Positions 5,182 to 61,746 of a stretch of DNA of 64,000 nt are shown piece after piece (the stretch's first letter is position 1; every line of letters begins with the position of its first letter). Location of the stretch: NCBI GenBank assembly GCA_022394775.1, contig JAGFCB010000014.1, positions 7,715 through 71,714 of the forward strand, read 5' to 3'. Position numbers and translations under genes: made by a program. The notes under the pieces were generated by a model. The model was given only the letters and a program-made list of their open reading frames with translations, searched no databases and was not told where the DNA came from. This DNA is from Candidatus Poribacteria bacterium. Lineage in GTDB: Bacteria; Poribacteria; WGA-4E; WGA-3G.

Positions 5182-6457
5182 ATCCTGCCGGAGGTTTCAA
5201 ATAAGATTTTTTGCCTTAATTTTTGTTGCCGTGCTTAGTACAACAATACTCATTGGGTGTGAAAGGCAACTTATACCACCGATAGATCCGACGGATCCAT
5301 CGCAAACAGCCTCACAATTGGCACAAAAAGCACTGTCAGACCTTGCGGACACCGCTGCTAAACGTGGATTTGTTGATCTTGCTAACGCTGCAAATGAAGT
5401 CGCAGAAGTCCTTACAGTAGAACAGGAACAAGAAACAACAGGAATAGCATTCTTGAAACTTTATCAGGAAGCATACACTTTACAAGATGCATTTGTTTTA
5501 GCAAGCTGCGGGATAACATTGGATGGGTTTTCTATGGTGTCCATGCGTGCAGCAGAGATATACATAACAGATCCATACTTAACAGAATTAGCTATGGAAC
5601 CGAGTGACAGGGAACAGGTATTGGAAAACCTTGCGCAAGAAGCATTGAATGCAGGAACGATATTGCGGCAGTTTCCTGCAGAGAACGCTTTTATTCCCTT
5701 TGCTTTCGGGTACAAGCCGTCCAGCTATCTTCCTTCAGGCACTGGGATAGTATACTTTCAGTCGTGCAACAACGAAATACTCATAAATTATGACGAAACA
5801 ATTCGGCTAGTGTTTATAACGCGGGCAGCTGTAGTTGAGTTTCTGACTCTCAAAGGATACGCGATGGTGCAAGAGGAATTATCATTTACTAATTATAAGT
5901 TTATAGATTTAAATAATTATGAGTTTATAGACTTAAATGCGGATGTTAATCCATATTCTATTAGGGAAGAATTACTCTCTATCCCCGGTGTTGCGAGAAT
6001 AAGTATCTGTGGGGATGAATACATTCCCGGACCTCCTGTCACAGTAGAAGAACCGACCTTCGATGCACAACCATTTTTTATTATCGTAGACCGGATAAGG
6101 GCAAGATACAATGAAGCTTGGTGTCAAGGCAACTTTGACATAATAGACAGTATCTTAATTGAAGAAAGCAGGGTGGATTTCTTTAATTATTCCTTCGTCC
6201 GCAACCTTGCAGATATCTATGCAGAAGAAATTCCGGAGGCTGCAGAACGTATCCGGACAAATGGTTTTTCCCTTCACAGTATAGCAGTGGCGTTTCTTTA
6301 TATCTATTCTCGGCATTCAGAGAAAAGTCATGAAGATATTACTGAACTCTTCCGACAATCCATCAGAGATGGATATGTGACTATAGAGCATTTTAGAGGT
6401 GGAACAATTTTAAATAATCTACACATTGAGGCACCAAGCATCCCAATCATTCAGTGA
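5144..6457 (+). CDS. Hypothetical lipoprotein with an internal tandem peptide repeat
   Basis: N-terminal signal with lipobox: RRFQIRFFALIFVAVLSTTILIGC. Repeat NYKFIDLN/NYEFIDLN. Markedly AT-rich relative to its neighbours. The true start is uncertain because the annotated ATG overlaps the previous gene. Confidence 0.5.
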   Translation: MMSKRSLRRCLLKSCRRFQIRFFALIFVAVLSTTILIGCERQLIPPIDPTDPSQTASQLAQKALSDLADTAAKRGFVDLANAANEVAEVLTVEQEQETTGIAFLKLYQEAYTLQDAFVLASCGITLDGFSMVSMRAAEIYITDPYLTELAMEPSDREQVLENLAQEALNAGTILRQFPAENAFIPFAFGYKPSSYLPSGTGIVYFQSCNNEILINYDETIRLVFITRAAVVEFLTLKGYAMVQEELSFTNYKFIDLNNYEFIDLNADVNPYSIREELLSIPGVARISICGDEYIPGPPVTVEEPTFDAQPFFIIVDRIRARYNEAWCQGNFDIIDSILIEESRVDFFNYSFVRNLADIYAEEIPEAAERIRTNGFSLHSIAVAFLYIYSRHSEKSHEDITELFRQSIRDGYVTIEHFRGGTILNNLHIEAPSIPIIQ

Positions 6458-6472
6458 ATAATGGAGGCTAAA

Positions 6473-8101: not shown

Positions 8102-8180
8102 AGGAATTGTTTCATTAGGATTTACGCAAACTCCTACTACCACACTATCATTATTGGGCTAAGACCCACGGAGGCTAATT

Positions 8181-9035
8181 GTGAATAGCACCACTGTGAG
8201 AATCATGGCGTACTCGGTTTTTATGATAACCTTTTGTCTTGTAGCACCACAAACTTGGGGGCGTGAGGCTGTTCTTCTTGAAGAAGATTTTGAAGGCGTG
8301 AAACTCGAAGCAAGTATAATGGAACAGGTTAAAGATAAAGACGTTTGGTCAGGCACACCGCCTGAAGGTTGGGAAATTACAAACGAGAACCCTAAAGATC
8401 TCGGTATGCCTGAGTGGAGAACTTGGGCGATTGTTGATCTTGAGTGGTGGACACGAACAGCCGAAGACCAGCGGCGTAGTGAGTTCACCGGAGTCCACAA
8501 TGACGGCAAGGGCAAAGGGAACGGAGCCGTTTCTGATCCTGATGAGTGGGACGATTGGGAGGGAAATGGGGATCCTGATGCCCAGAGTCGTTGGAACGGT
8601 CACTTAATTACGCCACCCATTAAAATCAAAGGCGCAGCAGCAAAATCGCTCGTCTTAACATTGGATTCGAGCTGGCGACCTGAAGATACCCAAAATGGTG
8701 AGATCACAGTGAGTTTCGACGGCGATAAGGAAGAACGAATTCTATTCTTCAAGAGCGTCGGGATTGACGCAGGCGCGCATACCCTTGTTACGATTCCTAC
8801 CCTTAAACTAAAAGAGGAAAAAATAAACGATGGGGAACAGATAAACGAAACATTAGAAATCCCGATCGACAACCCCGCAGGTGCAGCGGAGATGACTATT
8901 AGTTTCGGTGTCGTTGACGCACAGAATGATTGGTGGTGGGCGATAGATAATATAAAACTTATAAGCACTGCCTTTGATGTAGAACCGAGAGATAAATTAG
9001 CAGTGAAATGGGGAGAAATGAAGTCCTTACAATAA
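8181..9035 (+). CDS. Hypothetical secreted protein
   Basis: Signal peptide MAYSVFMITFCLVAPQTWG; acidic, D/W-rich segments. Has a GTG start with GGAGG 7 nt upstream. Confidence 0.5.
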   Translation: MNSTTVRIMAYSVFMITFCLVAPQTWGREAVLLEEDFEGVKLEASIMEQVKDKDVWSGTPPEGWEITNENPKDLGMPEWRTWAIVDLEWWTRTAEDQRRSEFTGVHNDGKGKGNGAVSDPDEWDDWEGNGDPDAQSRWNGHLITPPIKIKGAAAKSLVLTLDSSWRPEDTQNGEITVSFDGDKEERILFFKSVGIDAGAHTLVTIPTLKLKEEKINDGEQINETLEIPIDNPAGAAEMTISFGVVDAQNDWWWAIDNIKLISTAFDVEPRDKLAVKWGEMKSLQ

Positions 9036-9152
9036 CCCCCCTCTATCAAATTGTGAGCAACGCAATATCACTTACAATTTCGCAAATATACGCTAAAAGA
9101 GTGATGCGCTTCCCTCAAGTGTATCGCTCTTTTATGCATTGGAGAAAAATTT

Positions 9153-10205
9153 ATGAAAATATTGGTCACAGGTGGCACGGGACGCATCGGGTCGAACCTC
9201 GTTAAAAAATTACTGGAAAAAGGACACGATATCCGAAGTTTCGTTTATCCGGGTGATGTCAACCGTGTTGGAAGATGGGACGGAACTGAACGCGTTGAGA
9301 CCGTCCTCGGCGACTTGCGCGAATATGAAGACGTTAAAAAAGCCGTTGAAGGTGTTGATGCTATCTATCATATCGCCGCTGCTTTCGGGGGGCCCTTTGA
9401 TAACCGCCAGTACTTGGAGATTAATGGTATGGGGACGCTCAACATTTTGGAGGCTGTCCGCGAATCCAATCCGAACCTTCACCGTCTCGTTTATGCCTGT
9501 ACCGAAGCAATCTATTGGGAACTTACTGAGAAGGGCAGATTTTTCGATAAACCGATCACGGAAGATATGGTTGCTAAATACCATCACATGCCTTATTTCC
9601 TTACCAAATGGATCGGTGAGGAATTGTGCATGACCTATCACCACCAATACGGCGTACCTTCCACTGTTTTCCGATTTACTACCGTTATTGAACCGAGCGA
9701 ATTCCTCAATGAAGATGATTTGCCGAAACTGTTTGTCTTTAGTAATATTTACAACCGATACAGCAATTATAAAGGCGATGATCCTGCTGAGTTAGAAACC
9801 GCTGAGACTGTCAAACGTCTCTGGGATGGACAAGAAAAATTTATACTCAAACGCAACCCTAACGGGCGACCTTATAAAGAACATTTCACTGATGTTCGCG
9901 ATATTGTGCAAGGATTGGTTTCCGGGATTGAGAAGGATGCCGCTATCGGCGAAGAATTCACACTCGGAGGGAACGGTGTTTTCAAACACGAAGAGGTTAT
10001 GCCATATCTATCCGAACGCTACCAGATGGATTTTGTTGATGTCCAACTCCCGCAACCTCTCTATTTTGAATTTGATTTGAGCAAAATCAAAACACTATTG
10101 GGCTTTGAACCACAACACGATTTAGCGAGTATCCTTGATGCCGCTGAAGCGATGCGCCGTGGTGAAGATGTCGGCATTATTCCAACAGGCGTTCGGTGGA
10201 ACTAA
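9153..10205 (+). CDS. NAD-dependent epimerase/dehydratase (SDR family)
   Basis: N-terminal Rossmann motif MKILVTGGTGRIGSNLV. RBS GGAGAAAAA. Confidence 0.85.
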   Translation: MKILVTGGTGRIGSNLVKKLLEKGHDIRSFVYPGDVNRVGRWDGTERVETVLGDLREYEDVKKAVEGVDAIYHIAAAFGGPFDNRQYLEINGMGTLNILEAVRESNPNLHRLVYACTEAIYWELTEKGRFFDKPITEDMVAKYHHMPYFLTKWIGEELCMTYHHQYGVPSTVFRFTTVIEPSEFLNEDDLPKLFVFSNIYNRYSNYKGDDPAELETAETVKRLWDGQEKFILKRNPNGRPYKEHFTDVRDIVQGLVSGIEKDAAIGEEFTLGGNGVFKHEEVMPYLSERYQMDFVDVQLPQPLYFEFDLSKIKTLLGFEPQHDLASILDAAEAMRRGEDVGIIPTGVRWN

Positions 10206-12750: not shown

Positions 12751-12810
12751 ATAGGACTCTCGTATCTCCTCTTAAAGTCCCCCTGATAAGGGGGATTTAG
12801 GGGGTTAAAG
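12750..12810. repeat. Degenerate copy of the MITE/REP-like core CCTCTTAAAGTCCCCCTGATAAGGGGGATTTAGGGGGTTAAAG
   Basis: Begins at the stop codon TAG-ATAGGACT, as the copy at 29028 does. A 9-bp stem hairpin TAGCGCGAG..CTCGCGCTA follows at 12817-12846. Confidence 0.6.
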
Positions 12811-12850: not shown

Positions 12851-14035
12851 ATGCAAAAATTTCAAATGCAAAACTACTTTTTACCCCCACGTATTGAATT
12901 AGGCGACGGTGCCATCCAAAACTTAGGTGAACATGTCAAAACGTTTGAAGGCAAAAAACCGTTCTTGGTGAGCGATGCCGGTGTTATCAACGCCGGTATT
13001 CTTGCCAGAGCGATAGATGCTTTAGACACAAGTGGTTTACCCCATGCGATATATTCAGAGATCGAACCGAATCCCACAGATACCAGCATCACACACGGGG
13101 TTGAAGCTTATAAGTCTGAAGCGTGCGATGTCGTCATCGCTGTAGGTGGGGGCAGCGTTATGGATGCTGCCAAAGCCATCCGGCTTTTGACAACCCATGA
13201 GCCGCCCTTAGAGCCTTATTACGCGGATGTCGGTGGTGCTGAAAGGATTCGAGATGATATGCCGCCCTTAATCTGCGTCCCTACAACCGCAGGCACTGGC
13301 AGCGAAGTCTCACAAGGATCGATCATTACAGATACATCGTTCAACACGACCAACAGATGGCGGAAACGTGCGATCGTTACCCCGCTCAATATGTCGAATA
13401 TAGCACTCCTTGATCCGGGTATAACGGTCGGCATGCCGACCGCACTCACTGCTGCAACCGGTATGGATGCCATTACGCACGGGATTGAGGCGTATGTCGC
13501 AACGAAGTATCACCCTATTGCCGAAGGGGTCGCATTGCAGGCTCTCAGAATTTTGAGTGCGAACATCCAAAAAGTGTATCACAACGGGGAGGACGTGGCT
13601 GCGCGAGGAGAGATGCTACTCGGATCGTGTATGGCAGCGTTCGCGTTCCAGAAAGGACTCGGTGCTGTTCACTCGCTGGCGCATCAACTTTCCACGGACG
13701 CACCGATCCCACACGGCGTAGCAAACGCAATTTTGCTCCCACCTGTCATGGAATTTAACTTTTCCCATGCAACCGAGAAATACGCCGAAATCGCGCGCGC
13801 CTTGGGGATAGATACCAACGGGATGGATAGCAGTGAAGCAGGACGTGCCGCTATTGATAAAATTAGGGCGTTCAACACAGAATTAAATATGCCTGCCGGG
13901 CTTGGAGAGGCTGGCTTAGACCGAAAAAAGATTCCAAAACTCGGCGCAGATGCAATGCTTGATCACTGCCACAAATTCAACCCAAGAGCCTGCACGGAAG
14001 CAGATATGATAGCGTTATTTGAGGCGGCCTTTTAG
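12851..14035 (+). CDS. Iron-containing alcohol dehydrogenase
   Basis: Fe-ADH signature GGGSVMDAAKA and the family's His-rich metal site region. Confidence 0.9.
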   Translation: MQKFQMQNYFLPPRIELGDGAIQNLGEHVKTFEGKKPFLVSDAGVINAGILARAIDALDTSGLPHAIYSEIEPNPTDTSITHGVEAYKSEACDVVIAVGGGSVMDAAKAIRLLTTHEPPLEPYYADVGGAERIRDDMPPLICVPTTAGTGSEVSQGSIITDTSFNTTNRWRKRAIVTPLNMSNIALLDPGITVGMPTALTAATGMDAITHGIEAYVATKYHPIAEGVALQALRILSANIQKVYHNGEDVAARGEMLLGSCMAAFAFQKGLGAVHSLAHQLSTDAPIPHGVANAILLPPVMEFNFSHATEKYAEIARALGIDTNGMDSSEAGRAAIDKIRAFNTELNMPAGLGEAGLDRKKIPKLGADAMLDHCHKFNPRACTEADMIALFEAAF

Positions 14036-14102
14036 TGTTGCTTGCGAACTAAAACTTGCTATTCAAAAGAGTGTTGCTTGCGAACTAAAACTTGCTATTC
14101 AA
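14031..14102. repeat. 36-bp direct tandem repeat, 2 copies (GTGTTGCTTGCGAACTAAAACTTGCTATTCAAAAGA)
   Basis: Near-perfect duplication lying between the convergent stop codons of the Fe-ADH and PQQ/WD40 genes. Confidence 0.8.
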
Positions 14103-16422
14103 AAGCAGGAAGATCAACCGGTGCAATCCACGCCTGCGTCAACGCTGGTTTATACGCATTATCGCGCAGATAGTCTGATGTCTGCCACAAACAGAGATGT
14201 TTACCATCTGGCATCCAGACAACAGATGTCAGTTTCATAGCAGTGCGGGCGATAGGCACCTTCTTACCGCTTTCAAGGTCATAAACCCAGACTTTCCAAC
14301 GAATCCCTTGACAATCCTCGCGTTCCAAATACGCTAACTGTCTCCCTGTCGGTGACCAAGCAGGCGACGTGTGTTTCAATATCTGGCTCTGCGTCAGTGT
14401 AGGCGTTGACTCCGATATATGCAACTGCTTATCCATCCGCTGACCTGGACGATTACTACCGGATAAAACGTAAGCCAGTTGTGTGCTATCTGCTGACCAA
14501 TTCAACTGCTGAACCTTTTGATGTTGGGTTTGGATCTCCTTTATGCGTTCACCCTCTATATTTTGGATGCGGACACCGACATATTTCGAGTTATTCACAC
14601 CAAAAGCGACGCGGGTGCCATCAGGTGCCCAAGTTGGGGCAGGGAGATAGGTGTAATTGCGTTGTCGGCGTTCAATCGGCACACGCGCGATTGCACTTAA
14701 ATCGCTGCCATCGCTATTAATACGGTAGATAACATCCATCCCCCCAGCTTGAGAGGCGTCGTATCTTCTAAATACCAAGCGATTTGACGTAGGCGACCAA
14801 GCAGGTCCCTCGCCGAGAACCAACTGTTTAACGCGTCCGAATTGCCAATCCACTGTATAGATATACCGTTCGCCGCCTTCATCAACCTCAAATGCCAAAA
14901 GTCTGCTATCCAGCGACCAAGAGATATGCGGATTGTAAAACTGTCCAGTGTAAAGCCTGCGTGCTTGTTGCCCTTCCCGATCCATAATCCACAGTTCATC
15001 CGCACGCCAGTACCGACTCCTTAAGTCATTCCTTTTTAGAAATGCGATCAGTTTGCCGTCAGGACTCCAGCGCGGGAATTCCGCACCTTCAAGCAATTGC
15101 ATCCTACGTGGCAGGGCAGTCGAGAGACCATGTCCACCACTAAAAGTCGTGTTGAACATGACACCGTCAGTATCTTCAAATTCCCCAAGAGCGAACTTGT
15201 CCATCCATCCCCGGACACCGTTCGGGAGTTCAACCTCATACCCGTCGAATGCCATACGCGCATTTGGCGTTGATTCGTCCGAAGCTTGCACGATCGGCAA
15301 ACGTACCCCGTCGTTGAGGTTTAACAACACAGATGTGCCTTCTTTATTTGCGTAAACCGGTGCAGCATCATGCACCACAATTCCCGTTTGCCGCGAGTCT
15401 GACGCACCCTCCGTACTGCCGGAGCTTGTAACCTCGCCTGCATTTGTGAACGCATAGACCCTGCCGTCACCCGATGCAGCGTAAAGGATACCATCAGAAA
15501 TCGCTGGTGCGGCTTCCACAAAACCACCGAGTTGATGCGCCCAAGTCTGTGTTTTTGATGAAGCGTCAAACGCGTGCAGATGTCCATCGCGCGCCCCAAT
15601 ATAGACGCTGCCATTTGCGATGACAGGATAACTCTCACTTCCTGCTGTCTGAGCCCTCCACATCTTCGCATTGTGTTCTGGGAAAACGGGACGGAATACA
15701 CCTTTCGCACATCCGTATTCGACCCCATTAATATGAATTGTCCGCTCGCGCACCGATTCAACTGTCCCTGTCCTCGCGTTCAACACGTAGATTTTTGAAG
15801 GGAACACGCCAATATAAACTTTGTTATCCGCAACGACCGGTGGCGCGTCCATCCAATTTTTTGATTTGAACTCCCAGAGTTTCTCACCTGTTTTTGTATC
15901 TAAGGCATAGACCTTGTTATTCCGGGCATTGAAATAGACCCGATCTCCAAGCACAGCAGCAGAATAGCGAATAGCATCTCCCGCATCAAAAACCCATTTA
16001 ATCCCCCACTGCTTGGCATCGAGGGCGTACAATTTGCCATCAGTTGAACCAATATATAGAATGCCATTCGCGATGACAGGGGAGGCGTAGAGCGGTCCAC
16101 CCGTTTTGAATTTCCACAGCAATGCCAACGGTGGCGCGAGGCTTTGATCAGGGCTCATTCCCGAAAAGCCTAAATCGTACATGAAGATGTGCCAATCTTC
16201 AGCACGCGGCGGTGTGACGGATTCCATCACTCCGGAGGGGACGGGCTGCTGACCGCCTGACCGCTGTGCTTGTTGTTTCTGTTGTGAGTCACATCCCCAC
16301 ACAAGCAGTACCATGAATAGGATTATCAACTTTTTAGCGCAGCTCGCGGGTTTCCAAAATTTATTGTACAAGTGTCTGTTCCAGAGATACACATTAACCC
16401 TTTCGTTCAGTGCCTCGATCAA
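14095..16422 (-). CDS. PQQ-like beta-propeller plus TolB-like WD40 repeat lipoprotein
   Basis: N-terminal KKLIILFMVLLVWGC; repeated G.LYA...G.LYA.D PQQ-type blades; C-terminal WSPDGK/WAPDGT/WSPTGR TolB-type repeats. Confidence 0.75.
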   Translation of the reverse strand: MIEALNERVNVYLWNRHLYNKFWKPASCAKKLIILFMVLLVWGCDSQQKQQAQRSGGQQPVPSGVMESVTPPRAEDWHIFMYDLGFSGMSPDQSLAPPLALLWKFKTGGPLYASPVIANGILYIGSTDGKLYALDAKQWGIKWVFDAGDAIRYSAAVLGDRVYFNARNNKVYALDTKTGEKLWEFKSKNWMDAPPVVADNKVYIGVFPSKIYVLNARTGTVESVRERTIHINGVEYGCAKGVFRPVFPEHNAKMWRAQTAGSESYPVIANGSVYIGARDGHLHAFDASSKTQTWAHQLGGFVEAAPAISDGILYAASGDGRVYAFTNAGEVTSSGSTEGASDSRQTGIVVHDAAPVYANKEGTSVLLNLNDGVRLPIVQASDESTPNARMAFDGYEVELPNGVRGWMDKFALGEFEDTDGVMFNTTFSGGHGLSTALPRRMQLLEGAEFPRWSPDGKLIAFLKRNDLRSRYWRADELWIMDREGQQARRLYTGQFYNPHISWSLDSRLLAFEVDEGGERYIYTVDWQFGRVKQLVLGEGPAWSPTSNRLVFRRYDASQAGGMDVIYRINSDGSDLSAIARVPIERRQRNYTYLPAPTWAPDGTRVAFGVNNSKYVGVRIQNIEGERIKEIQTQHQKVQQLNWSADSTQLAYVLSGSNRPGQRMDKQLHISESTPTLTQSQILKHTSPAWSPTGRQLAYLEREDCQGIRWKVWVYDLESGKKVPIARTAMKLTSVVWMPDGKHLCLWQTSDYLRDNAYKPALTQAWIAPVDLPAFE

Positions 16423-19649: not shown

Positions 19650-19740
19650 GTTCTACGGAAAGGAACCTCAAGGTTCAAACCCACTTCATCGAACCGCAAG
19701 GAAAATTAAAAAAACGAACCGCAAGGAAATTAAAAAACAA
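19650..19740 (+). promoter_or_regulatory. Conserved 5' leader module: TACGGAAAGG, about 30 nt, then two tandem copies of GAACCGCAAGGAAA(A)TTAAAAAA abutting the hppA start
   Basis: The same module is seen at 38675-38742 (ilvN) and 39288-39378 (ilvC). Confidence 0.6.
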
Positions 19741-22655: not shown

Positions 22656-22658
22656 TAG

Positions 22659-22748
22659 AACTTACGCATCCCCATTGCTGGCGGGGTTTGAAACCCCGCC
22701 AGCAGTGCGTAATACATAGGTTATCGTAGAAAGATGCGTAAGTTCTGG
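22659..22748. repeat. MITE/REP-like element, second core type: degenerate TIRs CTTACGCATCC / GATGCGTAAGTTC around the palindrome CTGGCGGGGTTTGAAACCCCGCCAG
   Basis: Perfect 11-bp stem palindrome at 22677-22701. Same architecture as the element at 61749-61843. Confidence 0.65.
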
Positions 22749-29027: not shown

Positions 29028-29154
29028 ATAGGACTTACGCATTTCCTCTTAAAGTCCCCCTGATAAGGGGCGGTGAATGCCCATAAGGCATTCATACCGT
29101 TGATTCTTTAGGGGGTTTGAAACATTGAAATTACTGCTTTTGCGTAAGTCCTAA
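29028..29154. repeat. MITE/REP-like element with intact TIRs (ATAGGACTTACGCA ... TGCGTAAGTCCTAA) and the core CCCCTGATAAGGGG..TTAGGGGGTT, interrupted by a palindromic insert GTGAATGCCCATAAGGCATTCAT
   Basis: Starts exactly at the tmk stop codon. TIRs at 29028-29041 and 29141-29154. Confidence 0.75.
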
Positions 29155-30358: not shown

Positions 30359-30387
30359 ATTGACAAACGGATTTCCTCGTGGTATAA
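30359..30387 (+). promoter_or_regulatory. Consensus sigma70-like promoter TTGACA, 17 nt spacer, TATAAT upstream of metG
   Basis: Perfect hexamers with a 17-nt spacer. Confidence 0.55.
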
Positions 30388-30440
30388 TTCTTACCAAATT
30401 AGTCAATACTGCCTGAACTGGAGTCCCGAAAAGGAATATA

Positions 30441-32336
30441 ATGAGCACATTTTACGTCACCACCCCTATCTACTACGTGAATGGCGAACCGCATGCAGGA
30501 CACGCCTATACCACTATCATCGCTGATGTTTTGGCGCGTTATCACCGTATCAAAGGCGATGAGGTGTTCTTCCTGACTGGCGTTGATGAACACGGGGCAA
30601 ACATACATAAAGCCGCTGAGAACGCAGGACTTGCTCCACAAGACTATTGCAATAAAATGGCACCTACGTTTACAAAACTTTGGGAACGGTTGAATATCTC
30701 GCACGACATCTTCATGCGGACAACAAGCGATATGCACAAAAGCGGCGCGGAGAAATTCCTCACCGCCCTCTATGATAGTGGCGATGTCTATAAAGGTTCT
30801 TATGAGGGGCATTATTGCCGACCGTGCGAGCGGTTTGTCCCTGAAAAAGAGTTGACGGACGAAAAGATCTGCCCGATTCATAAATTGCCTTTGGAATGGC
30901 TCGAAGAGGAAAACTACTTCTTTAGACTTTCTAAGTATCAAGATCGCTTACTCACACATTTTCACGAGAATCCCGACTTTGTCTACCCCGCAGCTCGACG
31001 CAATGAACTTTTGAGCGTACTTGATTCCGGATTGGAAGACATAAGCATATCTCGCTCCTCTGTTTCATGGGGAATTTCCTTACCCTTTGATCGCGAGCAT
31101 ATCGTCTATGTCTGGATTGAAGCGTTAATGAACTATATGACAGCACTCGGTTATGAAACCGATGATAAGCAGTACCGTACTTTTTGGCCCGCTGATGTCC
31201 ACATGATGGCAAAGGATATCTCCCGTTTTCACGCGCTGATCTGGCCCGCAATGCTAATGGCTGTTAACTTGCCACTTCCAAAACAGGTTGTTGCGCACGG
31301 TTGGCTGACGAAGGACGGCGAAGCATTGAGCAAAACGCGAGGCATTGCCATTGATATGGACACGGACATTGATACCTACGGATTGGATACATTCCGTTAT
31401 TATCTTCTGCGCGAATTTAGTTTCGGAAACGATGGTGATTATCGTCCTACCCGTTTGCATGCACGCTACAACGCTGATCTCGCGAACGACCTCGGCAATC
31501 TGCTCAATCGCGTCCTCGGTTTACTCAACAAGAACTTTGAGGCAATTCCTCCACCGACAACGCCCGGGGAATTCGACGACGAAATCAAGGAAATGGCACA
31601 GACGACGGTAGATAAATTAGATGCGCATATAAACGCATTCGCGTTTGATGCTGCATTGGAGACTATCTGGGAATTTGTGCGACGCATCAATCGGTATATC
31701 CAACAGACCCAAGTCTGGACGCTCGCGAAGCCAGAGACGAAGCCGAGAATGGGAACGATCCTGTACAATAGTTTAGAAGCACTCCGCGTCATCTCTGTGT
31801 TGATTGCCCCCTTTATTCCGGAAACTGCTCAGAAAATTCAGAAACAGATCGGTTTATCCGAATTTGATACCGCCGCAGAGTGGGGACGCTTACCTGTAGA
31901 TATTGCCGTTAGCAGAGGTGAACCCATCTTCCCGCGGGTTGATACAAAAGATCAGAAACAGGCACGACCTGAAAAAGCAGCGAAGCCGAAGCCGAAGACG
32001 GCAAAGCAAACAACCGACTTAGTCTCCTTCGCGGATTTCCAAAAGTTGGATCTTCGGGTCGCGCGTATTCTCACTGCTGAACCCATTGAAGGTGCGGACC
32101 GACTCCTCAAGTTGCAAGTAGACCTCGGTACTGAGAAACGGCAAGTCGTCGCAGGGATTGCCGAACACTATACCTCTGAAACCCTCGTAGGCAAACAGAT
32201 AATCATCGTCGCGAATCTTGAACCCGCAACTATCCGTGGTGTCGAATCACACGGTATGATTCTCGCAGGCAGCGCGGACGCTGTAGTTTTAGCGACCCTT
32301 GAAACCGAAATGCCCCTCGGCACACAGGTAAGGTAG
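30441..32336 (+). CDS. metG: Methionine--tRNA ligase with C-terminal EMAP/Trbp111-type tRNA-binding domain
   Basis: HIGH region PIYYVNGEPHAGHAY; KMSKS-type ALSKTRG; C-terminal LDLRVARIL...GADRLLKLQVDLG. Confidence 0.95.
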   Translation: MSTFYVTTPIYYVNGEPHAGHAYTTIIADVLARYHRIKGDEVFFLTGVDEHGANIHKAAENAGLAPQDYCNKMAPTFTKLWERLNISHDIFMRTTSDMHKSGAEKFLTALYDSGDVYKGSYEGHYCRPCERFVPEKELTDEKICPIHKLPLEWLEEENYFFRLSKYQDRLLTHFHENPDFVYPAARRNELLSVLDSGLEDISISRSSVSWGISLPFDREHIVYVWIEALMNYMTALGYETDDKQYRTFWPADVHMMAKDISRFHALIWPAMLMAVNLPLPKQVVAHGWLTKDGEALSKTRGIAIDMDTDIDTYGLDTFRYYLLREFSFGNDGDYRPTRLHARYNADLANDLGNLLNRVLGLLNKNFEAIPPPTTPGEFDDEIKEMAQTTVDKLDAHINAFAFDAALETIWEFVRRINRYIQQTQVWTLAKPETKPRMGTILYNSLEALRVISVLIAPFIPETAQKIQKQIGLSEFDTAAEWGRLPVDIAVSRGEPIFPRVDTKDQKQARPEKAAKPKPKTAKQTTDLVSFADFQKLDLRVARILTAEPIEGADRLLKLQVDLGTEKRQVVAGIAEHYTSETLVGKQIIIVANLEPATIRGVESHGMILAGSADAVVLATLETEMPLGTQVR

Positions 32337-32360
32337 TAGGCACACTCCGCGTGCCGTAAC
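32334..32360 (+). repeat. Stop-codon-associated palindromic element TAGTAG-GCACACTCCGCGTGCC-GTAAC
   Basis: Paralogous copies lie at 40945-40974 and 61716-61746, both directly after stop codons. Confidence 0.6.
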
Positions 32361-32362
32361 AA

Positions 32363-35300
32363 ATGCAAGATATAGAAAACACCCTTAAAACCCGCATCCT
32401 GAACGATCAAGCGGACACCTTCATCGTCATTGTGCCGACCGATGCCGCACGTTTACATCGCCAACGCGAATTGGTCGGTTATCATCCTAACGGCGCAGTT
32501 GTCAATTTAGGCGTGTATACCAGTGTGGAGTTCATTCAAAAGCTATACCGTCAAACTCGATCACCAAGGCAACATATTTTATCAGGAATCCAACACCTTT
32601 GGCTTCACGAAATAGCAGATCCTGAGGCTGACAATACCGACCTATATAACACATTTCGTCCAATCCAAAATACCGCCATCCCCGACAGTACACTCTCCCT
32701 CATCTTGGACACGATAAATCACCTTAGAGACCAAGGAGAGACTGAACCTAACTTTGTAGAAGATAATCTAATCCAAGTAGATCTGGCTCACCTTTACAGC
32801 GAATATGAGGCGAAACTTGGGAACCAATGGATAGATGAGAAGGGCAGACACCATTATCTTGCAAACAATTTCAAAAAAGAGTTCATCAAGAACGCATTTT
32901 TTGGTGTTGATCTTGTTGTTTTTGAAGGTTTTACTTTGATTTCAAAAGCCGATATTAAACTCTTGAAACACATTGCGGAGATACCTAACATAGAGATGTG
33001 GTTTCGCACCGATTGTGTTGAAGACAATAAAGCCCTTTATAAAAATATTATTGACCTCGTCTCACAATTTAAAGACACAAATGCTCACATTGATACCAAC
33101 TATGAACAGGATCCTAATCAACATAAACATTTCGCTGAGAACCTGTTCAAAACGAATGTTACCTTGGAGACCCCCAAAACTGATCTAACAGAGAAAATTA
33201 AGGTTTTAAAGCCATCTGATCGATCCGAAGAGGTGGAGCAGATCGCTCATCTAATTCAGCAACGGGTCTTAAGTACCGACTGTAAAATGGGTGAAATTTG
33301 TGTTGTATTCTACAATATAGGTAATTACCAACAGCGAATTGCAGAAGTTTTTCCGACGTATGGCCTCCCATATTCACTCGTTGAAAATGTGTCATTAATG
33401 AAATCAGAGGTTGTTAAAGAAATCTTTTCTCACCTTTCACCGCGGCAAACTCCCATCGGTAACACCTATTTTCCTAACGTTAAGTCTAAATCACGTCCAG
33501 ACGATTTGTCTCCCGACGAATTTAAGAATTACATCAATAACTTTCTCGAATCCGAGGAAGTCATTCTCACTATTTTAAACCCGATGCTATTGAAAAATAG
33601 AAAAATTGTTGAAGGCGAGGTAAACGCATTCCAGCAGTTTCAAAAAATAGTTAAAGGGTTTTGTGACATGCTAAAATCTGAAGAAGATGGGTCATATAAA
33701 TATGAAAATTATATTAATAAACTCAGATATATTGCGAAGCATACCCGCTATCAAAATAGAGCATCGGTAAATGCGGAAACTGTTAAGATCTTTTCACTGA
33801 GTGAACTCACAAGTTTAGCATATACTAATGAACTCAGAAGTTTAGAGTTTGACACCGTCTTTTTAGGCGATTTTGTAGAGGGTAGGTTTCCAGAAAATTA
33901 TCGTCCAGATCCGTTATTACCAGAAAACCCTTATCGCAATGAAGAAGAGCAATTACACGATAACCGATTCATATTCTATCGGGTTCTCAAGTCTTTTCGC
34001 GAACGACTCTACCTCCTTGTACCACAACGCGAGCGCGAAGCAGAACAGATCCCTTCTCCTTTTCTTGGAGAATTAAAAGCAATCGCTGACATTGACGAAA
34101 CCCAGGATATTCCAAATCCTTCACAAGGTAGTGTAACCGGTTTCCTCAGTGCGTACGGAGATCATGTTTGGATGGCACCGACCGCTGCCGATGGAGAATT
34201 CCCTCCTGAAATTGCGAATATGCGTCCGCTGATAGACCACGTCGTTAAAATTGAGAAGAGCCGCGAGACGACACATAAATATTTGGATTATGAAGGCGTG
34301 TTAACGGCAGAAATGCTTTCTCCCGAAAGCCGAAATCAGTTGCAAAGCCTTCACGATGAACTATATTCTGTCACAGCATTGGAAACTTACGCCAAGTGTC
34401 CTTTTCAGTACTTTGTGGGTAACGTTTTGAAACTCGGTGTTAAAGATGAAGAGGAGGAAGATGAATTATCAAGCTTGGAGAGAGGAAAACTCCTTCACAA
34501 AGTTCTCTTCACATTCTTCTATAATCGCCGAGACCGAAGGGATCCACCTATCCCGCAATGTGTTGACAATGACTTTGAAAAAGCGAAACGCCAATTGAAT
34601 GAAATTTTACAAGATGCCGCTGAGGAACGCCGCGGAGAGCGAAACGAGCCACCCATCGGAGCGAACAATCTCTTTTGGGAAACTGATATAGCGAAACTGC
34701 GTGTTGCCCTGCACAAATGGCTCGAAGCAGAGCGCAGTTCCGATTTACCGCTCATACCAAGTTACTTTGAAGTCAACTTCGGGCAGGCGGGCGAACCGGC
34801 AGATTCCGAACTCAGTTGTACGAAGCCAATCCGTATCGGTGATGTGCGTATGAAGGGTAAAATAGATCGCCTTGATCTCGGCAATGGTGCCTTTAATATT
34901 ATTGACTATAAGACCGGCAGTTCCACGATTAGAATGCCGGAGATCCGTAGCGGACGGAGTCTCCAACTCCCCATCTATCTACGCATTGCACAGGAATTGC
35001 TAAACGACGGGTTAGAGCCAGCAGCAGGACTCTATTATAAAATCAGACTGGACCAATTCACAGCAGAACTGGGCATCGGAACGGAATCCCAAAACGGAGC
35101 CACTTACAACAGTTACAACGGTACAGGCTGGAAATCGGTGCATTCAAGAAGTGGGCAGTTATTAGCGGATGAAATTTTCGATGACCGACTTATGTGCGTC
35201 AGTGGCTATGTTCAGCAATACGTTGAGAGTATATCTAATGGTACATTTCCACTCATTACACGCGTCGAGACATTTGTGGATTCAGAGGAAGAAGGCGACG

Positions 35301-35404
35301 CACCCATCACACCTAAAAACAAAACGGAACCTTGCAGCTATTGCGATTATAAACGAGTCTGCCGCGTCGGGGCGTTCGTTGAAGCAAGTGAATCAGACGA
35401 ATAG
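32363..35404 (+). CDS. AddB-like PD-(D/E)XK nuclease family protein
   Basis: RecB-type nuclease motif GKIDRLDLGNGAFNIIDYKTGSS; C-terminal Cys cluster CSYCDYKRVC. No N-terminal Walker A was seen. The middle of the gene is AT-rich. Confidence 0.6.
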   Translation: MQDIENTLKTRILNDQADTFIVIVPTDAARLHRQRELVGYHPNGAVVNLGVYTSVEFIQKLYRQTRSPRQHILSGIQHLWLHEIADPEADNTDLYNTFRPIQNTAIPDSTLSLILDTINHLRDQGETEPNFVEDNLIQVDLAHLYSEYEAKLGNQWIDEKGRHHYLANNFKKEFIKNAFFGVDLVVFEGFTLISKADIKLLKHIAEIPNIEMWFRTDCVEDNKALYKNIIDLVSQFKDTNAHIDTNYEQDPNQHKHFAENLFKTNVTLETPKTDLTEKIKVLKPSDRSEEVEQIAHLIQQRVLSTDCKMGEICVVFYNIGNYQQRIAEVFPTYGLPYSLVENVSLMKSEVVKEIFSHLSPRQTPIGNTYFPNVKSKSRPDDLSPDEFKNYINNFLESEEVILTILNPMLLKNRKIVEGEVNAFQQFQKIVKGFCDMLKSEEDGSYKYENYINKLRYIAKHTRYQNRASVNAETVKIFSLSELTSLAYTNELRSLEFDTVFLGDFVEGRFPENYRPDPLLPENPYRNEEEQLHDNRFIFYRVLKSFRERLYLLVPQREREAEQIPSPFLGELKAIADIDETQDIPNPSQGSVTGFLSAYGDHVWMAPTAADGEFPPEIANMRPLIDHVVKIEKSRETTHKYLDYEGVLTAEMLSPESRNQLQSLHDELYSVTALETYAKCPFQYFVGNVLKLGVKDEEEEDELSSLERGKLLHKVLFTFFYNRRDRRDPPIPQCVDNDFEKAKRQLNEILQDAAEERRGERNEPPIGANNLFWETDIAKLRVALHKWLEAERSSDLPLIPSYFEVNFGQAGEPADSELSCTKPIRIGDVRMKGKIDRLDLGNGAFNIIDYKTGSSTIRMPEIRSGRSLQLPIYLRIAQELLNDGLEPAAGLYYKIRLDQFTAELGIGTESQNGATYNSYNGTGWKSVHSRSGQLLADEIFDDRLMCVSGYVQQYVESISNGTFPLITRVETFVDSEEEGDAPITPKNKTEPCSYCDYKRVCRVGAFVEASESDE

Positions 35405-36272: not shown

Positions 36273-36301
36273 TTGACATCTCTCTTTAAATGTGTTATAC
36301 T
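36273..36301 (+). promoter_or_regulatory. Sigma70-like promoter TTGACA, 17 nt spacer, TATACT driving the T-box leader and ilvBNC
   Basis: -35 at 36273-36278 and -10 at 36296-36301. Confidence 0.5.
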
Positions 36302-36399
36302 TAAAATGTAAATATAATTTAGCACGCCCTGAAACTTCATAAAACGGGGTGCGTAATTAACATTTAAATAGATTACCAAAAAAGCGTTGAAAGGGAGGA

Positions 36400-36706
36400 G
36401 TAAGTCGTCCGGGCTTGCGAGAGATGGAAACTCACCGGCTGAAAGGTTTCCTCAAGTTCCCTCGACTGAAGGTCGCCCTGGAGCTGCTAATCTGAACAAT
36501 TGTAGGTGCGAGTTTCGCTCGCGACAGGTAGGATTGGTCGGTGTGATGCCCGTTATCGCATCCCAAAGAGTGCTCTTTCTCATTGTAGGCGGGCTTTGTA
36601 AGCCCGATACCTCCAATAAAAATGGGAAGAGAATTGGAGTGGTACCACGGTAAGGCAAGTGTAATGCCCTTCTCGTCTCCATGTTTGGAACGAGAAGGTT
36701 TTTTTA
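36400..36706 (+). ncRNA. T-box riboswitch leader with intrinsic terminator, upstream of ilvB
   Basis: T-box sequence AATTGGAGTGGTACCACGG at 36632-36650 (consensus AAUUAGGGUGGUACCGCG). F-box CCGTTA at 36549-36554. GA-rich GCGAGAGATGG near the 5' end. Terminator CCTTCTCGT..ACGAGAAGG plus T7 at 36668-36705. Confidence 0.75.
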
Positions 36707-39287: not shown

Positions 39288-39378
39288 GGATATACGGAGA
39301 GAACTGTTTTTCCATACAAGGCTCCTGAACGAACCGCAAGGAAATACAAAAAGACGAACCGCAAGGAAATATAAAAAT
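39288..39378 (+). promoter_or_regulatory. Conserved leader module (TATACGGAGAG ... 2x GAACCGCAAGGAAATA(C/T)AAAAA) abutting the ilvC ATG
   Basis: Tandem duplication of the 22-nt unit, as seen upstream of hppA. Confidence 0.6.
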
Positions 39379-40402: not shown

Positions 40403-40492
40403 TTGCGATGTACGCATCTGCCCCCTTGATAAGGGGGATAAAGGGGAGTTGCGGTGTACGCATCTGCCCCCTTGATAAGGGGGGATAAAGGG
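40403..40492. repeat. Tandem 2-copy, roughly 45-bp repeat TTGCG(A/G)TGTACGCATCTGCCCCCTTGATAAGGGGG(G)ATAAAGGGG, related to the MITE core family
   Basis: Shares ACGCAT...CCCC(C)TGATAAGGGG..A(A/T)AGGGG with the elements at 461-500, 12770-12810 and 29045-29120. Confidence 0.7.
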
Positions 40493-40496
40493 GGTT

Positions 40497-40943
40497 ATGG
40501 ATTTATCCGATAACGCAAATGTCCATTCAGACCCATTTCTCATTCGGGAATGTCGTTCAGAAGAAGCAGAAGCACTTCTTGCATTATGGCACGCTGCTGG
40601 AACATCTCCGAGCGTCACAGATACCATTACAGACATCCAAGGTGCGATAGAAAGTTCCGCATTGGTATTGGTTGCTGAAGTGAATCAACGCATTGTTGGT
40701 TCCATAATCGCCACTTTTGATGGGTGGCGCGGCAATATGTATCGCATCGCGGTTCATCCTAACTACCGACGGCGGGGTATCGGGCGAGCATTGGTCAAAG
40801 AAGGCGAGCGATATTTAGCGGAACTGGGTGTTAAACGCATCACAGCACTTGTAGAAGAAAAGTATCCGTGGGCGATTGCATTCTGGGCAGGGGTCGGGTA
40901 TGAAGTAGAGCCAGGAATCGTCCGTTTTTTCCGCAATCCATAA
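40497..40943 (+). CDS. GNAT family N-acetyltransferase
   Basis: Acetyl-CoA site motif IAVHPNYRRRGIGRALV. Confidence 0.8.
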   Translation: MDLSDNANVHSDPFLIRECRSEEAEALLALWHAAGTSPSVTDTITDIQGAIESSALVLVAEVNQRIVGSIIATFDGWRGNMYRIAVHPNYRRRGIGRALVKEGERYLAELGVKRITALVEEKYPWAIAFWAGVGYEVEPGIVRFFRNP

Positions 40944-40944: not shown

Positions 40945-40974
40945 TAGTAGTAGACACACGCCGTGTGCGGTTAC
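40945..40974 (+). repeat. Stop-codon-associated element TAGTAGTAG-ACACACGCCGTGTGCGG-TTAC, a variant of the 32334 family
   Basis: Directly follows the GNAT TAA stop. The FG-GAP RBS GAGGAGG follows immediately. Confidence 0.5.
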
Positions 40975-40989
40975 ATGAGGAGGTCAGCC

Positions 40990-42105
40990 GTGAAATTCAA
41001 GGGACATCTACTCGACGATACCGTCAAAAGCGTTTACGGATTGGCTGTTGCCGATATAAACGGTGACGGACAACTCGACATCATCGCAGGCTCCACAGGC
41101 GAACCCATCATCGCTTGGTACGAAGCACCTCACTGGAAAAGACACCTCGTAACCGATCAGGGCAGCGGACACATCACTATCGCTCCTTACGATCTCACAG
41201 GTAACGGCATCCCTGACCTCATCGCCGGGAGCGGTTTTAACCGCGGCGTAAACGCTGCAGGTGGCTACCTCCACTGGCTTGAATCACCAATACAAGACGG
41301 ACAGAACTGGAAAAGCCACCACATTGCTGATGTCCCTTTCATCCACCGCATCGCGCTCGCAAATTTCTCCGACAACGCAATATCGACACCTTTTCTTATC
41401 GTCGCCTCAATTCGCGGTGAAGACGGCAACCCCGGCGAATGGCACAGCCCTGGCTCCCTTTGGTGTTATGAACTCTCTGATACGCCACGAGATACAGCCT
41501 CTTGGCAATCCCATCTCCTTGACGATTCCCTCCACATCAACCACGGCTTGAGCATCAACGATGTTGACCAAGATGGACGCGACGATGTGCTAATTAGCTG
41601 CACAGAAGGCTTAATCTGGTACGAACCGCCTGTTAACCCAATGACAGACGACTGGGGCAAGTGGATTATCAGTGACCGCGAGTGTAGCGATACCTACACT
41701 GCAGATATTGATGGTGATGGTATCAACGAAATTTTAGCGATTGAACCGTGGCACGGGAACAATCTCGTCTGGTATAAAGCCACCGGTGATCTACGCACCG
41801 ACCCGTGGGAACGCCACCTCATTGACGACACACTCAACCGCGGACACTCCCTCGCCGCCGTGGACATCGATGATGACGGTATGCTTGAGGTGGTCTGTGG
41901 CTACAACGGCGAAGGCACAAGTCTGCACCTCTACCGTCCGGAGAATCTGGCGCATAATCACTGGCGTAAAGAGACGATTGACAATGGCGGCTTAGGCGTT
42001 GGACAAATGCATGTCTTGGACGTGAACGGAAACGGTAGACTGGACATCGTCGCCAGCGGCCTCAGCACCGGTAACGTCAAGTGGTATGAAAACGAACCCA
42101 GTTGA
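40990..42105 (+). CDS. FG-GAP repeat beta-propeller protein
   Basis: DINGDGQLDIIAGS, DIDGDGINEILAIE, DIDDDGMLEVVCG, DVNGNGRLDIVASG. A GTG at 40990 lies 6 nt after GAGGAGG; the ORF-track start is at 40963. Confidence 0.7.
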   Translation: MKFKGHLLDDTVKSVYGLAVADINGDGQLDIIAGSTGEPIIAWYEAPHWKRHLVTDQGSGHITIAPYDLTGNGIPDLIAGSGFNRGVNAAGGYLHWLESPIQDGQNWKSHHIADVPFIHRIALANFSDNAISTPFLIVASIRGEDGNPGEWHSPGSLWCYELSDTPRDTASWQSHLLDDSLHINHGLSINDVDQDGRDDVLISCTEGLIWYEPPVNPMTDDWGKWIISDRECSDTYTADIDGDGINEILAIEPWHGNNLVWYKATGDLRTDPWERHLIDDTLNRGHSLAAVDIDDDGMLEVVCGYNGEGTSLHLYRPENLAHNHWRKETIDNGGLGVGQMHVLDVNGNGRLDIVASGLSTGNVKWYENEPS

Positions 42106-61715: not shown

Positions 61716-61746
61716 AAGTAGTAGGCACGCGCCGCGTGCCGTAAAC
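61716..61746 (+). repeat. Stop-codon-associated palindromic element AAGTAGTAG-GCACGCGCCGCGTGCC-GTAAAC
   Basis: Perfect 8-bp palindrome GGCACGCG/CGCGTGCC immediately after the alsS-like stop. Third member of the 32334 family. Confidence 0.6.

Follow-up and report, generated by a model that had tools for sequence, protein, structure and literature searches.

The three short sequences that follow metG, a GNAT gene and a TPP-enzyme gene in the 64-kb window, that is the whole stretch of DNA analysed, are very probably solo copies of a GTAG-tagged REP belonging to a miniature DNA family presumably mobilised by RAYT. A REP is a repetitive extragenic palindrome, a known kind of very small mobile element that depends on its own transposase for its spread. 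RAYTs, the REP-associated tyrosine transposases, belong with the HUH/Y1 enzymes in the IS200/IS605 superfamily. Roles in RNA processing, attenuation or coupling are not supported as the reason for which the element exists; by analogy, the hairpins could plausibly influence the stability of 3′ ends or translation termination as a by-product.

Scanning of the window with the 28-nt family consensus (GTAGTAG-GGCACAC-TCC-GTGTGCC-GTAAC), tolerating up to 8 mismatches, gave exactly three matches in 64 kb, all on the + strand, versus none in the 10 shuffles used as control, and repeat-finding in the window likewise grouped the three copies as one family. The three copies reported in the initial annotation were thereby confirmed, and their positions are shown in Table 1 together with those of the neighbouring genes. 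All three are intergenic singletons, 8.6 and 20.8 kb apart, each beginning 0–4 nt from the stop codon of a + strand gene, and no inverted partner of any copy was found in the 64-kb window at 8 or fewer mismatches.

Table 1. REP copies, their parts and the flanking features in the window; flanking gene identities were checked with Pfam.
Feature	Position	Strand	Remark
Sigma-70-type consensus promoter (TTGACA-17-TATAAT with TG), upstream of metG	30360–30388	+	
metG (methionyl-tRNA synthetase), upstream of copy 1	30441–32336	+	Pfam
REP copy 1	32333–32360	+	1 mismatch to family consensus
Copy 1 head GTAGTAG	32333–32339	+	
Copy 1 stem GGCACAC / GCGTGCC	32339–32345 / 32349–32355	+	one A·C mismatch
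Copy 1 loop TCC, tail GTAAC		+	
AddB-like helicase-nuclease gene (PD-(D/E)XK, UvrD_C), downstream of copy 1	32363–35404	+	Pfam
GNAT acetyltransferase gene, upstream of copy 2	40497–40943	+	Pfam
REP copy 2 (GTAGTAGACACACGCCGTGTGCGGTTAC)	40947–40974	+	partly decayed
FG-GAP / beta-propeller gene, downstream of copy 2	40990–42105	+	Pfam
TPP-dependent enzyme gene ("alsS-like"), upstream of copy 3	60078–61715	+	Pfam
A/T-rich leader TTAAAA before copy 3	61712–61717	+	
REP copy 3	61718–61745	+	

What had been described as an 8-bp GC palindrome is a palindrome indeed, built as a 7-bp stem with a 3-nt loop. The stem is perfect in copy 3 (GGCACGC 61724–61730 / GCGTGCC 61734–61740, loop GCC, tail GTAAA), which is a member of a compensatory GGCACGC/GCGTGCC sub-family, contains a single mismatched pair in copy 1 and shrinks to 5 bp in copy 2 (CACAC/GTGTG, loop GCC). 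The tails at the three sites read GTAAC, GGTTAC and GTAAAC. That TAGTAG provides the stop holds at metG, where element positions 2–4 (TAG, 32334–32336) are the stop codon, and fails at the other two genes. The GNAT gene ends on TAA at 40941–40943, with copy 2 starting 3 nt past it and the following TAGs out of frame; the TPP-enzyme gene ends on TAA at 61713–61715 within the leader, the TAGs being in frame yet downstream. The stop position of metG is native, since the MetG C-terminus ...PLGTQVR is common to 119/119 full-length orthologues (120 listed). The hairpins open 2, about 9–11 and 8 nt past the stop codons in copies 1, 2 and 3. The next gene does adjoin copy 1 as first reported, with a gap of 2 nt before its ATG (32363), and no Shine-Dalgarno sequence was seen between the copy 1 hairpin and this ATG. 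The ribosome-binding site noticed directly past copy 2 is present (GAGGAGG, 40978–40984) and leads to a GTG start at 40990. The promoter before metG would put copy 1 within a metG-addB transcript.

Rho-independent terminators, or terminators lacking a U-tail, could be suspected at gene ends where a G+C-rich hairpin comes right after the stop codon, above all at copy 3, which has a folding energy of −13.1 kcal/mol and precedes a 183-nt gap. However, no T-run follows any window copy, by which an intrinsic terminator is rejected, and a terminator scan called none of the sites. The folding energies of copies 1 and 2 are indistinguishable from those of shuffled sequence (z −0.11 and +0.08), copy 1 gives way to the next ATG after only 2 nt, copy 2 runs up to a ribosome-binding site, and many family members are antisense or lie within arrays, making termination a very unlikely explanation.

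Across the wider family, conservation of the head (GTAG.AG), stem and tail exceeds 90% in the low-GC and the high-GC group alike, with single head positions at 95–100%, position 5 (T or C) being the exception. The G+C-rich 7-bp stem GGCACAC/GTGTGCC and its 3-nt loop form the palindrome of a REP, for which a length of 20–40 nt, a stem of 6–13 bp and a loop of 2–5 nt are usual, and the GTAG at element positions 4–7, which abuts or overlaps the first stem base, stands unpaired at the hairpin foot; in REPs an unpaired GTAG (GT[AG]G) is expected 0–2 nt 5′ of this foot (PMC6006769). In a search blind to the stem, 396 of 436 copies had a fully paired stem. The compensatory variants include, beside that of copy 3, GGCACAT/ATGTGCC, GGCTCAC/GTGAGCC and GGCTGCG/CGCAGCC, and double-sided stem changes numbered 23 against 4.6 ± 1.8 in shuffles, none of 500 shuffles being as high. 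Position frequencies in the 84 low-GC copies revealed an A/T-rich leader with the consensus TTAAWA before most of them.

The search for further copies that the initial annotation had proposed gave many: at least 118 genome blocks match the degenerate element pattern compared with a chance expectation of about 9 (1.2e12 positions / 1.4e11), and at least 120 metagenome blocks match a consensus with 27 specified bases. Among the matches listed, the genomes are counted in dozens and belong to Candidatus Poribacteria, the lineage of the window, and to Planctomycetota. The 28-nt consensus is kept almost base for base in the two phyla, at about 49% GC in the former and about 61% GC in the latter. Viral contigs held a single match and viruses were discarded as vector. 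From the window alone, 3 copies per 64 kb extrapolate to about 250 per 5–6 Mb genome; typical REPs are dispersed in more than 100 copies per genome.

The Planctomycete-type contigs L183, L219, L213, L244 and L251 each carry a REPtron, a RAYT gene with copies of this REP at its flanks, and in all of these except L213 clusters of the element were recorded on both sides of a single RAYT gene. In L244 the GTAG of the REP provides the stop codon of the RAYT gene itself. The proteins of L219, L183, L213 and L146 have their best NCBIfam match in NF047646, REP-associated tyrosine transposase (E 1.5e-19 to 4e-11), the candidate RAYTs scoring 43–70 bits against a curated cut-off of 80. Their only PDB match is 4ER8, TnpA(REP), and the motifs HUH, WQ and YI..NP are conserved; members of the family carry the JGI annotation "REP element-mobilizing transposase RayT". 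About 25 further RAYT ORFs in the databases have REP-encoded peptides at their ends, and the diverged RAYTs in L247, L250 and L252 go with REPs of the same design and different stems. The RAYT homologues among the matches listed were all at least 52% and nearly all at least 57% identical to the queries, and the few with an organism name were Planctomycete.

The search for a RAYT came up empty in the window and likewise in 56 Poribacteria blocks (about 450 kb) and three orthologous 22-kb loci, the blocks and loci amounting to some 0.5 Mb of Poribacteria DNA, and the RAYT link for Candidatus Poribacteria is therefore drawn by analogy only. A tblastn search with E. coli RayT gave nothing credible in either the genome blocks or the window, a weak match in L047 not being a RAYT ORF. 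The proteins recurring beside the element in the 118 genome blocks clustered into housekeeping and repeat-domain families with no transposase among them. ORFs between divergent copies, considered as transposase candidates, turned out to be a beta-lactamase-like hydrolase, agmatine-pathway genes and a zinc-ribbon protein. A RAYT profile search of 1.84 billion cluster representatives, from which AT-rich candidates were picked, yielded none assigned to Poribacteria among these candidates: P0252 and P0278 are Planctomycete and P0243 lies on an unassigned contig of 51% GC, all three contigs carrying REPs of the same design.

REPs are known to form dimers (head-out, tail-out or head-to-tail) and clusters. 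Dimers and clusters are also seen in this family, with the copies of the window as singletons. There are 45 convergent inverted pairs with heads outward, 3–300 nt apart and 40 of them within 100 nt; with few exceptions these belong to high-GC (Planctomycete) loci. Direct pairs no more than 300 nt apart number 34. The inverted doublet with a short spacer that defines a REPIN thus occurs among Planctomycete copies and not in the window; unlike REPINs, which are typically inverted dimers, Poribacteria copies are singletons or direct head-to-tail arrays. The tandem period is 32–43 nt, leaving 4–15 nt, often of repeated sequence, between units. This spacing also bears on whether the sequences are solitary CRISPR-like repeats or sites for another conserved host protein that is no transposase. 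A length of 28 nt, an internal hairpin and a GTAAC-type tail do recall CRISPR repeats, and extreme sequence conservation across two phyla would suit either, but arrays with unique spacers of about 25–50 nt, as required of a CRISPR, were not seen, and on the observed spacing CRISPR-like arrays are rejected. Nor are cas genes adjacent in the window, and RAYT is the only protein family found repeatedly flanked by the element, which argues against another host protein and makes this explanation as a whole hardly credible.

Association with stop codons was assessed by counting the ORFs, 150 codons or longer, whose stop falls at the head of the element. Such ORFs were found for 15/84 low-GC and 55/348 high-GC copies (16–18%), compared with 0.5% and 2.2% at random positions, and only 1/84 and 4/348 ended on the tail side. 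The tally of stop-codon distances suggested in the initial annotation therefore bore out the association, and in the high-GC set 32 of the 55 ORFs use the element's own TAG. Like other REPs, the family is mostly extragenic, lies preferentially 3′ of ORFs and has a head that can donate a TAG stop. Poribacteria copies are sense to their neighbouring genes in about 61–69% of cases and about a third are antisense.

An mRNA processing site, an attenuator and a translational-coupling element were among the first proposals for these sequences, which would then be dedicated cis-acting RNA elements (such as RNase processing sites) repeated through convergent or conserved regulatory use and not through mobility. 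The copies in the window, all sense, close to stop codons and in short co-directional gaps, would agree with this, as would the sense bias in Poribacteria, and stem covariation would suit a hairpin in RNA and one in single-stranded DNA alike. In the nearest relative, L121, two of the window's three sites (metG-addB and GNAT-FG-GAP) carry the element too, and the spacing from REP to ATG at addB is preserved in the window, L121 and L123; the occupancy shared with L121 fits slow turnover and also some selection for a role at the RNA level. At the orthologous metG junction, however, the REP present in L121 and L123 is missing in L122, the sequences at this junction differ, and orthologous copies differ at 5/28 positions with broken pairs. 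An empty-site comparison of the window with L064 met an intergenic region too diverged for clean insertion borders. The antisense third of the Poribacteria copies, the many inverted dimers and tandem arrays, the copies that flank and overlap a transposase gene and the decayed or missing copies at orthologous sites all speak against a dedicated RNA element, and near-identical copies beside unrelated genes in two phyla are unexpected for independently evolved regulators. A curated RNA family was ruled out at the element: in the whole window only a T-box at 36378–36683 reaches the Rfam gathering threshold, and around copy 3, with E values up to 10 admitted, the best matches had E ≥ 3. A dedicated RNA element is thus improbable, and of the original proposals it is the tiny mobile palindrome, distinct from the TAGGACTTACGCA family, that is favoured, as a GTAG-type REP with a RAYT partner.

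The mobile REP would work much as suggested by the structure and biochemistry of E. coli TnpA(REP): RAYT would bind the hairpin in single-stranded DNA, reading the GTAG head, and would cleave and rejoin, seeding new copies. Single copies would then decay by mutation, and the specificity of RAYT would hold the family consensus. The position at stop codons may reflect that insertion just 3′ of a gene is the least harmful. The head, in Poribacteria together with the TTAAWA leader, carries TAA/TAG in one frame, so that a copy inserted head-first could overlap or replace a stop codon and leave the protein undamaged, and the conserved A/T-rich 5′ flank may be a favoured target site. If transcribed within the metG-addB and GNAT-FG-GAP units, the hairpin may block 3′–5′ exonucleases and stabilise the upstream message, and lying less than 16 nt past the stop codon it may, as for E. 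coli REPs, slow termination or reduce upstream translation.

The near-identity of the consensus in two phyla could mean either that a REP-RAYT system crossed between them or that a host-level function at gene ends keeps the element in Poribacteria without a cognate RAYT; this reading, with either cause, we hold to be rather unlikely and put forward only tentatively. A host function in Poribacteria would be in line with the direct arrays and the TTAAWA leader, as well as with the sense bias and the pairing of tandem in-frame TAA/TAG stops with a hairpin. If true, inter-phylum transfer or RAYT-free upkeep would be unusual, as REPs are described as lineage-specific and vertically inherited, and the sharing makes a clean test case for REP-RAYT movement between phyla. 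For annotation, an abundant repeat is hereby identified in Poribacteria and Planctomycete genomes and metagenome-assembled genomes, accounting for odd intergenic gaps of 26–30 nt, tandem stops, probable assembly breaks and spurious read-through ORFs (with peptides such as VVGTLRVP and RHTECAYY). With many copies abutting stop codons, the family also lends itself to asking whether translation termination is tuned by REP hairpins in bacteria other than E. coli.

The family appears to be undescribed, and its kind is ordinary and known; a REP-RAYT family is added in two little-studied lineages and not a new kind of system. The survey by Di Nocera, De Gregorio and Rocco (2013; PMC3733652) includes E. 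coli REP/BIME, Pseudomonas GTAG-1 and Rhodopirellula baltica GTAG-20/21, with GTAG REPs of Planctomycetes located 3′ of ORFs and often supplying the TAG stop. The GGCACAC/GTGTGCC motif is absent from its supplementary text files, and the core sequence met only chance primer matches in the literature searched. Like those GTAG-tagged REPs, the present family has an unpaired GTAG at one end of a G+C-rich stem-loop (6–13 bp, loop of 2–3 nt), many dispersed and mostly extragenic copies that occur singly, as head-out or head-to-tail dimers or in clusters and tend to lie 3′ of ORFs, a TAG-donating head and repeat-flanked RAYT genes. Unlike them, its head is doubled (GTAGTAG) and its Poribacteria copies have the conserved TTAAWA leader, and whereas most REP families are species- or genus-specific, one consensus is here common to two phyla. 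Planctomycete-type copies resemble the Pseudomonas REPIN-RAYT system (Bertels and Rainey 2011, PMC3116915; PMC5581495) in being mainly inverted REPs 3–100 nt apart, in the REP-flanked RAYT gene and in the co-variation of RAYT lineages and REP stems, whereas the copies in the window and most in Poribacteria are singletons or direct tandem arrays, with no RAYT in the 0.5 Mb of Poribacteria DNA searched. Judged by its HvH, WQ and YI..NP motifs, the predicted enzyme has the HUH and catalytic Tyr of E. coli TnpA(REP)/RayT (PDB 4ER8), and its predicted substrate, a hairpin with a 5′ guide tetranucleotide, is like the subterminal hairpins of IS200/IS605. It differs from E. coli TnpA(REP) in a length of about 215 aa with an N-terminal LPHWYQPGVTYFVTFR region, in only about 22–28% identity over the core and in scoring below the NCBIfam equivalog cut-off. 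Liang, Rudd and Deutscher (2015), as cited in PMC12306157, reported that E. coli REPs within 15 nt of a stop codon lower translation, a distance at which terminating ribosomes reportedly stall, and the hairpins of the window, all of which open within it, may by analogy have the same effect.

A repeat finder placed the three copies of the 28-nt element in one family, D8, and a window scan allowing up to 8 mismatches to the 28-nt consensus, which was derived later than the first sighting of the copies, found these three alone, each on the + strand; shuffled sequence gave none. The three-copy claim of the initial annotation is thus real. Counts of short seeds of the element in the window were not above chance, and the signal is therefore carried by the full-length match. 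The further claim that the copies sit exactly on stop codons holds at metG, where the element's TAG is the stop, but not at the GNAT and TPP-enzyme genes, which stop at a TAA 2-3 nt upstream. A ...PLGTQV[RK]-type C-terminus is common to all 119 full-length MetG orthologues (among 120 listed), so the metG stop is the native one and does not owe its position to the element. A consensus promoter upstream of metG (30360-30388) would put copy 1 within a metG-addB transcript.

Repeats and signals in the window (gene context of REP copies from ORF coordinates and Pfam)
Feature	Position	Strand	Sequence and context
REP copy 1	32333-32360	+	aaGGTAGTAGGCACACTCCGCGTGCCGTAACaaATG; after metG, before AddB-like nuclease gene
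REP copy 2	40947-40974	+	TAAataGTAGTAGACACACGCCGTGTGCGGTTACatgaGGAGG; after GNAT acetyltransferase gene, before FG-GAP propeller gene
REP copy 3	61718-61745	+	TAAaaGTAGTAGGCACGCGCCGCGTGCCGTAAAC; after TPP-dependent enzyme gene
MITE-like units (five, ~90-125 nt)	445-565, 580-701, 22656-22747, 29029-29153, 61751-61843		13-nt inverted-repeat ends TAGGACTTACGCA
Motif, twice, 25 nt apart	19691-19729		GAACCGCAAGGAAA; directly upstream of H+-pyrophosphatase gene start codon (19754)
Motif, twice, 25 nt apart	39331-39369		GAACCGCAAGGAAA; directly upstream of ilvC start codon (39379)
Motif, diverged single copy	near 38719		GAACCGCAAGGAAA-like; before ilvN (38743)
Third small hairpin family	472-487, 12779-12794, 29056-29071, 40422-40437, 40468-40483		CCCCCTGATAAGGGGG then ATTTAGGGGG; after genes
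T-box leader (Rfam RF00230, 95.8 bits) with near-consensus promoter (36273-36301)	36273-36683		upstream of acetolactate-synthase-type TPP enzyme gene at 36891
Exact 36-nt tandem duplication	14034-14105		AGTGTTGCTTGCGAACTAAAACTTGCTATTCAAAAG x2; between convergent gene ends

Several other repeats share the window. The MITE-like units are the other palindrome family of the initial annotation; the last begins 5 nt after REP copy 3, two contain an inner hairpin, GGCGGGGTTTGAAACCCCGCC, and similar pieces occur in three Poribacteria loci (L006, L022 and L087). Just ahead of the GNAT gene, at 40403-40494, the third hairpin family is duplicated in tandem with a 46-nt period. The paired motif before the H+-pyrophosphatase gene and ilvC may be a 5'-UTR or translation signal, and T-box control of ilvB in a Poribacterium may merit a look.

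Tabulated position by position, 84 low-GC and 344 high-GC copies share an invariant GTAG-[T/C]-AG head, followed by the stem GGCACAC/GTGTGCC with the loop [T/G]CC and by the tail GTAAC; in low-GC copies a leader TTAAWA is also conserved, its TAA in frame with the two TAGs. A search blind to the stem, constrained by nothing but the head and the tail's CGT, gave 436 copies, 396 of them fully paired, and recovered the doubly compensated variants GGCACGC/GCGTGCC, GGCACAT/ATGTGCC, GGCTCAC/GTGAGCC, GGCTGCG/CGCAGCC and GGCATAC/GTATGCC. Among 52 distinct sequences the stem was paired in 93.7% of cells, and pairing collapsed when the register was slid. Double-sided changes numbered 23; shuffling gave 4.6 +/- 1.8, and none of 500 shuffles reached the observed count. 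Of the window copies, the third falls in the GGCACGC sub-family, the first is a hybrid bearing a single mismatch and the second has decayed. The element demonstrably has the structure by which REPs are operationally defined, in which GTAG is unpaired and stands at the base of a short, G+C-rich hairpin whose loop has 2-5 nt (PMC3733652; PMC6006769).

A degenerate 27-nt pattern fitting all three copies, scanned against one genome per species, matched at least 118 genome blocks versus about 9 matches expected by chance (1.2e12 positions / 1.4e11). About half of the blocks listed were Candidatus Poribacteria MAGs (mean GC 0.49) and the other half Planctomycetota (mean GC 0.61), including Pirellulales, Gemmataceae, Planctomycetaceae, Thermoguttaceae and Schlesneria. 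Metagenome contigs contained the exact consensus GTAGTAGGCACAC-N-CCGTGTGCCGTAAC in at least 120 blocks; among IMG/VR viral contigs it occurred a single time. The window belongs to Poribacteria, since it is syntenic with L064 (OY764073.1) at 78-85% DNA identity and its MetG is 92% identical to a protein on a TARA-ocean contig. The REP, in some cases tandem, was also seen on four contigs from MAGs labelled 'uncultured Alcaligenaceae' (L010, L058, L069 and L088); their ORFs cluster with those of Poribacteria and Planctomycete loci, and mis-binning is therefore a likelier explanation than a third host phylum. Poribacteria and Planctomycetota form two distinct phyla, and the near-identity of the family across the two is the only mildly surprising point.

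High-GC loci mostly hold convergent inverted pairs, heads outward and 3-100 nt apart; in Poribacteria the element occurs as singletons and head-to-tail arrays with a period of 32-43 nt, the upstream gene being on the same strand in 40 cases and on the opposite strand in 25. Tabulating the distance to stop codons bore out the association that had been proposed: an ORF of at least 150 codons terminated -12 to +5 nt from the head for 15 of the 84 low-GC copies and 55 of the 348 high-GC copies, against 0.5% and 2.2% of random positions, and on the tail side in 1 and 4, respectively. In 32 of the 55 high-GC cases the element's own first TAG is the stop codon. Insertions would be left at gene 3' ends by purifying selection, and head-first overlap with a stop codon would be harmless to the gene because TAA/TAG triplets are built into the head and leader; a target preference may likewise be reflected in the conserved A/T-rich flank.

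Three loci syntenic with the window were recovered via MetG orthologues. In L121, whose MetG is 92% identical, the metG-addB and GNAT-FG-GAP junctions both carry the element with altered sequences, the former reading GTAGCAGGCACAC-GGT-GTGTGCC-GTGAC and the latter differing at 5 of 28 positions with one pair broken. In L123 a decayed copy at the metG stop is separated, by about 100 nt of other sequence, from an intact one that abuts the addB ATG. No recognisable copy was present at the orthologous sites of L122, and L064 has a copy between genes at a place where the window lacks one. This differing occupancy and sequence implies that copies persist for a while, decay, and are gained and lost; a consensus that stays fixed while copies turn over is how a repeat family behaves when an enzyme-defined template renews it. 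L122, without a REP at the metG stop codon, carries an IS200/IS605 pair just upstream of metG (8118-9770; Y1_Tnp of 137 aa and OrfB/TnpB of 412 aa).

No RAYT was found in the window or in the 118 genome blocks listed, and homology and profile searches, the orthologous loci and the Poribacteria blocks yielded no Poribacteria counterpart. In metagenome blocks, tblastn with E. coli RayT matched L219, L183 and L146 and, more weakly, L213, each with a gene for a ~215-aa protein, which in L213 and L146 is truncated where the contig ends. Their best NCBIfam match was NF047646, REP-associated tyrosine transposase (E 1.5e-19 to 4e-11), at 43-70 bits, below the 80-bit equivalog cut-off; Pfam Y1_Tnp matches were borderline. 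The sole PDB match was 4ER8, TnpA(REP), aligned across the HUH motif, WQ and the YI..NP tyrosine motif, all invariant in a 20-member RAYT alignment. REP clusters lie on both sides of the RAYT gene in L219, in L183 (four copies 3', three 5') and in L244, a Bythopirellula contig in which the RAYT gene takes its stop codon from the GTAG of the REP. In L251 the RAYT gene (5729-6523) lies between nuoD and nuoE inside the nuo operon with REPs on both sides, one beginning at the nuoD stop codon and an inverted one ending 1 nt before the nuoE ATG. About 25 more database RAYT ORFs carry REP-encoded peptides at one end. This shows physical linkage of the element to a RAYT gene in one of the two phyla that carry it. 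Three distant RAYTs have REPs of the same design with different stems, GTAATAGGCTCAC-TCC-GTGAGCC (L247), GTAGCAGGCTGCG-TCC-CGCAGCC (L250) and GTAGGCCGACTC-TCC-GAGTCGGC (L252), which is the co-variation expected of enzyme and substrate.

The RAYT family comprised 2917 clusters at E <=1e-10 in a word-indexed search and 5344 representatives at 1e-10 in a full search, and many members are already labelled RayT by JGI. Many family members bear the JGI name 'type I restriction enzyme R subunit', and a RAYT-like domain is embedded in many long proteins of 400-1500 aa (P0265-P0390), which suggests fusion of a Y1 HUH module to restriction- or methylase-type proteins. In the Thermoguttaceae locus L004, about 0.8 kb separates a REP dimer from a second ORF resembling Y1 transposases (2485-2847), a distant one with 28% identity to the RAYT core and an HMM E of 2.6e-5; this ORF recurs in metagenome contig L225 (1110-1472).

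The 'mobile palindrome' reading of the initial annotation was right, given the GTAG REP structure and the RAYT coupling in one host phylum. By analogy with the biochemistry of E. coli TnpA(REP) and IS200/IS605, RAYT would recognise the hairpin and GTAG in single-stranded DNA and cleave and join REP DNA, giving new copies. In work on malE-malF, REP hairpins are classically said to be barriers to 3'-5' exonucleases. No T-run follows any of the three copies, and a terminator scan of the window called none of them; their reading as intrinsic terminators was therefore rejected. The three hairpins start 2-11 nt after stop codons, within the <16-nt range over which, according to the account of Liang et al. 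(2015) in PMC12306157, terminating ribosomes stall at E. coli REPs and translation is reduced, and comparable RNA effects may be envisaged here.

Stop-codon association is a known trait of GTAG REPs, and the inverted pairs of the high-GC loci have the same layout as the REPIN or 'HH dimer'. The family seems undescribed in Poribacteria and Planctomycetota; the GTAG REPs reported from Planctomycetes, GTAG-20 and GTAG-21 of R. baltica (PMC3733652), differ in sequence from the present REP.
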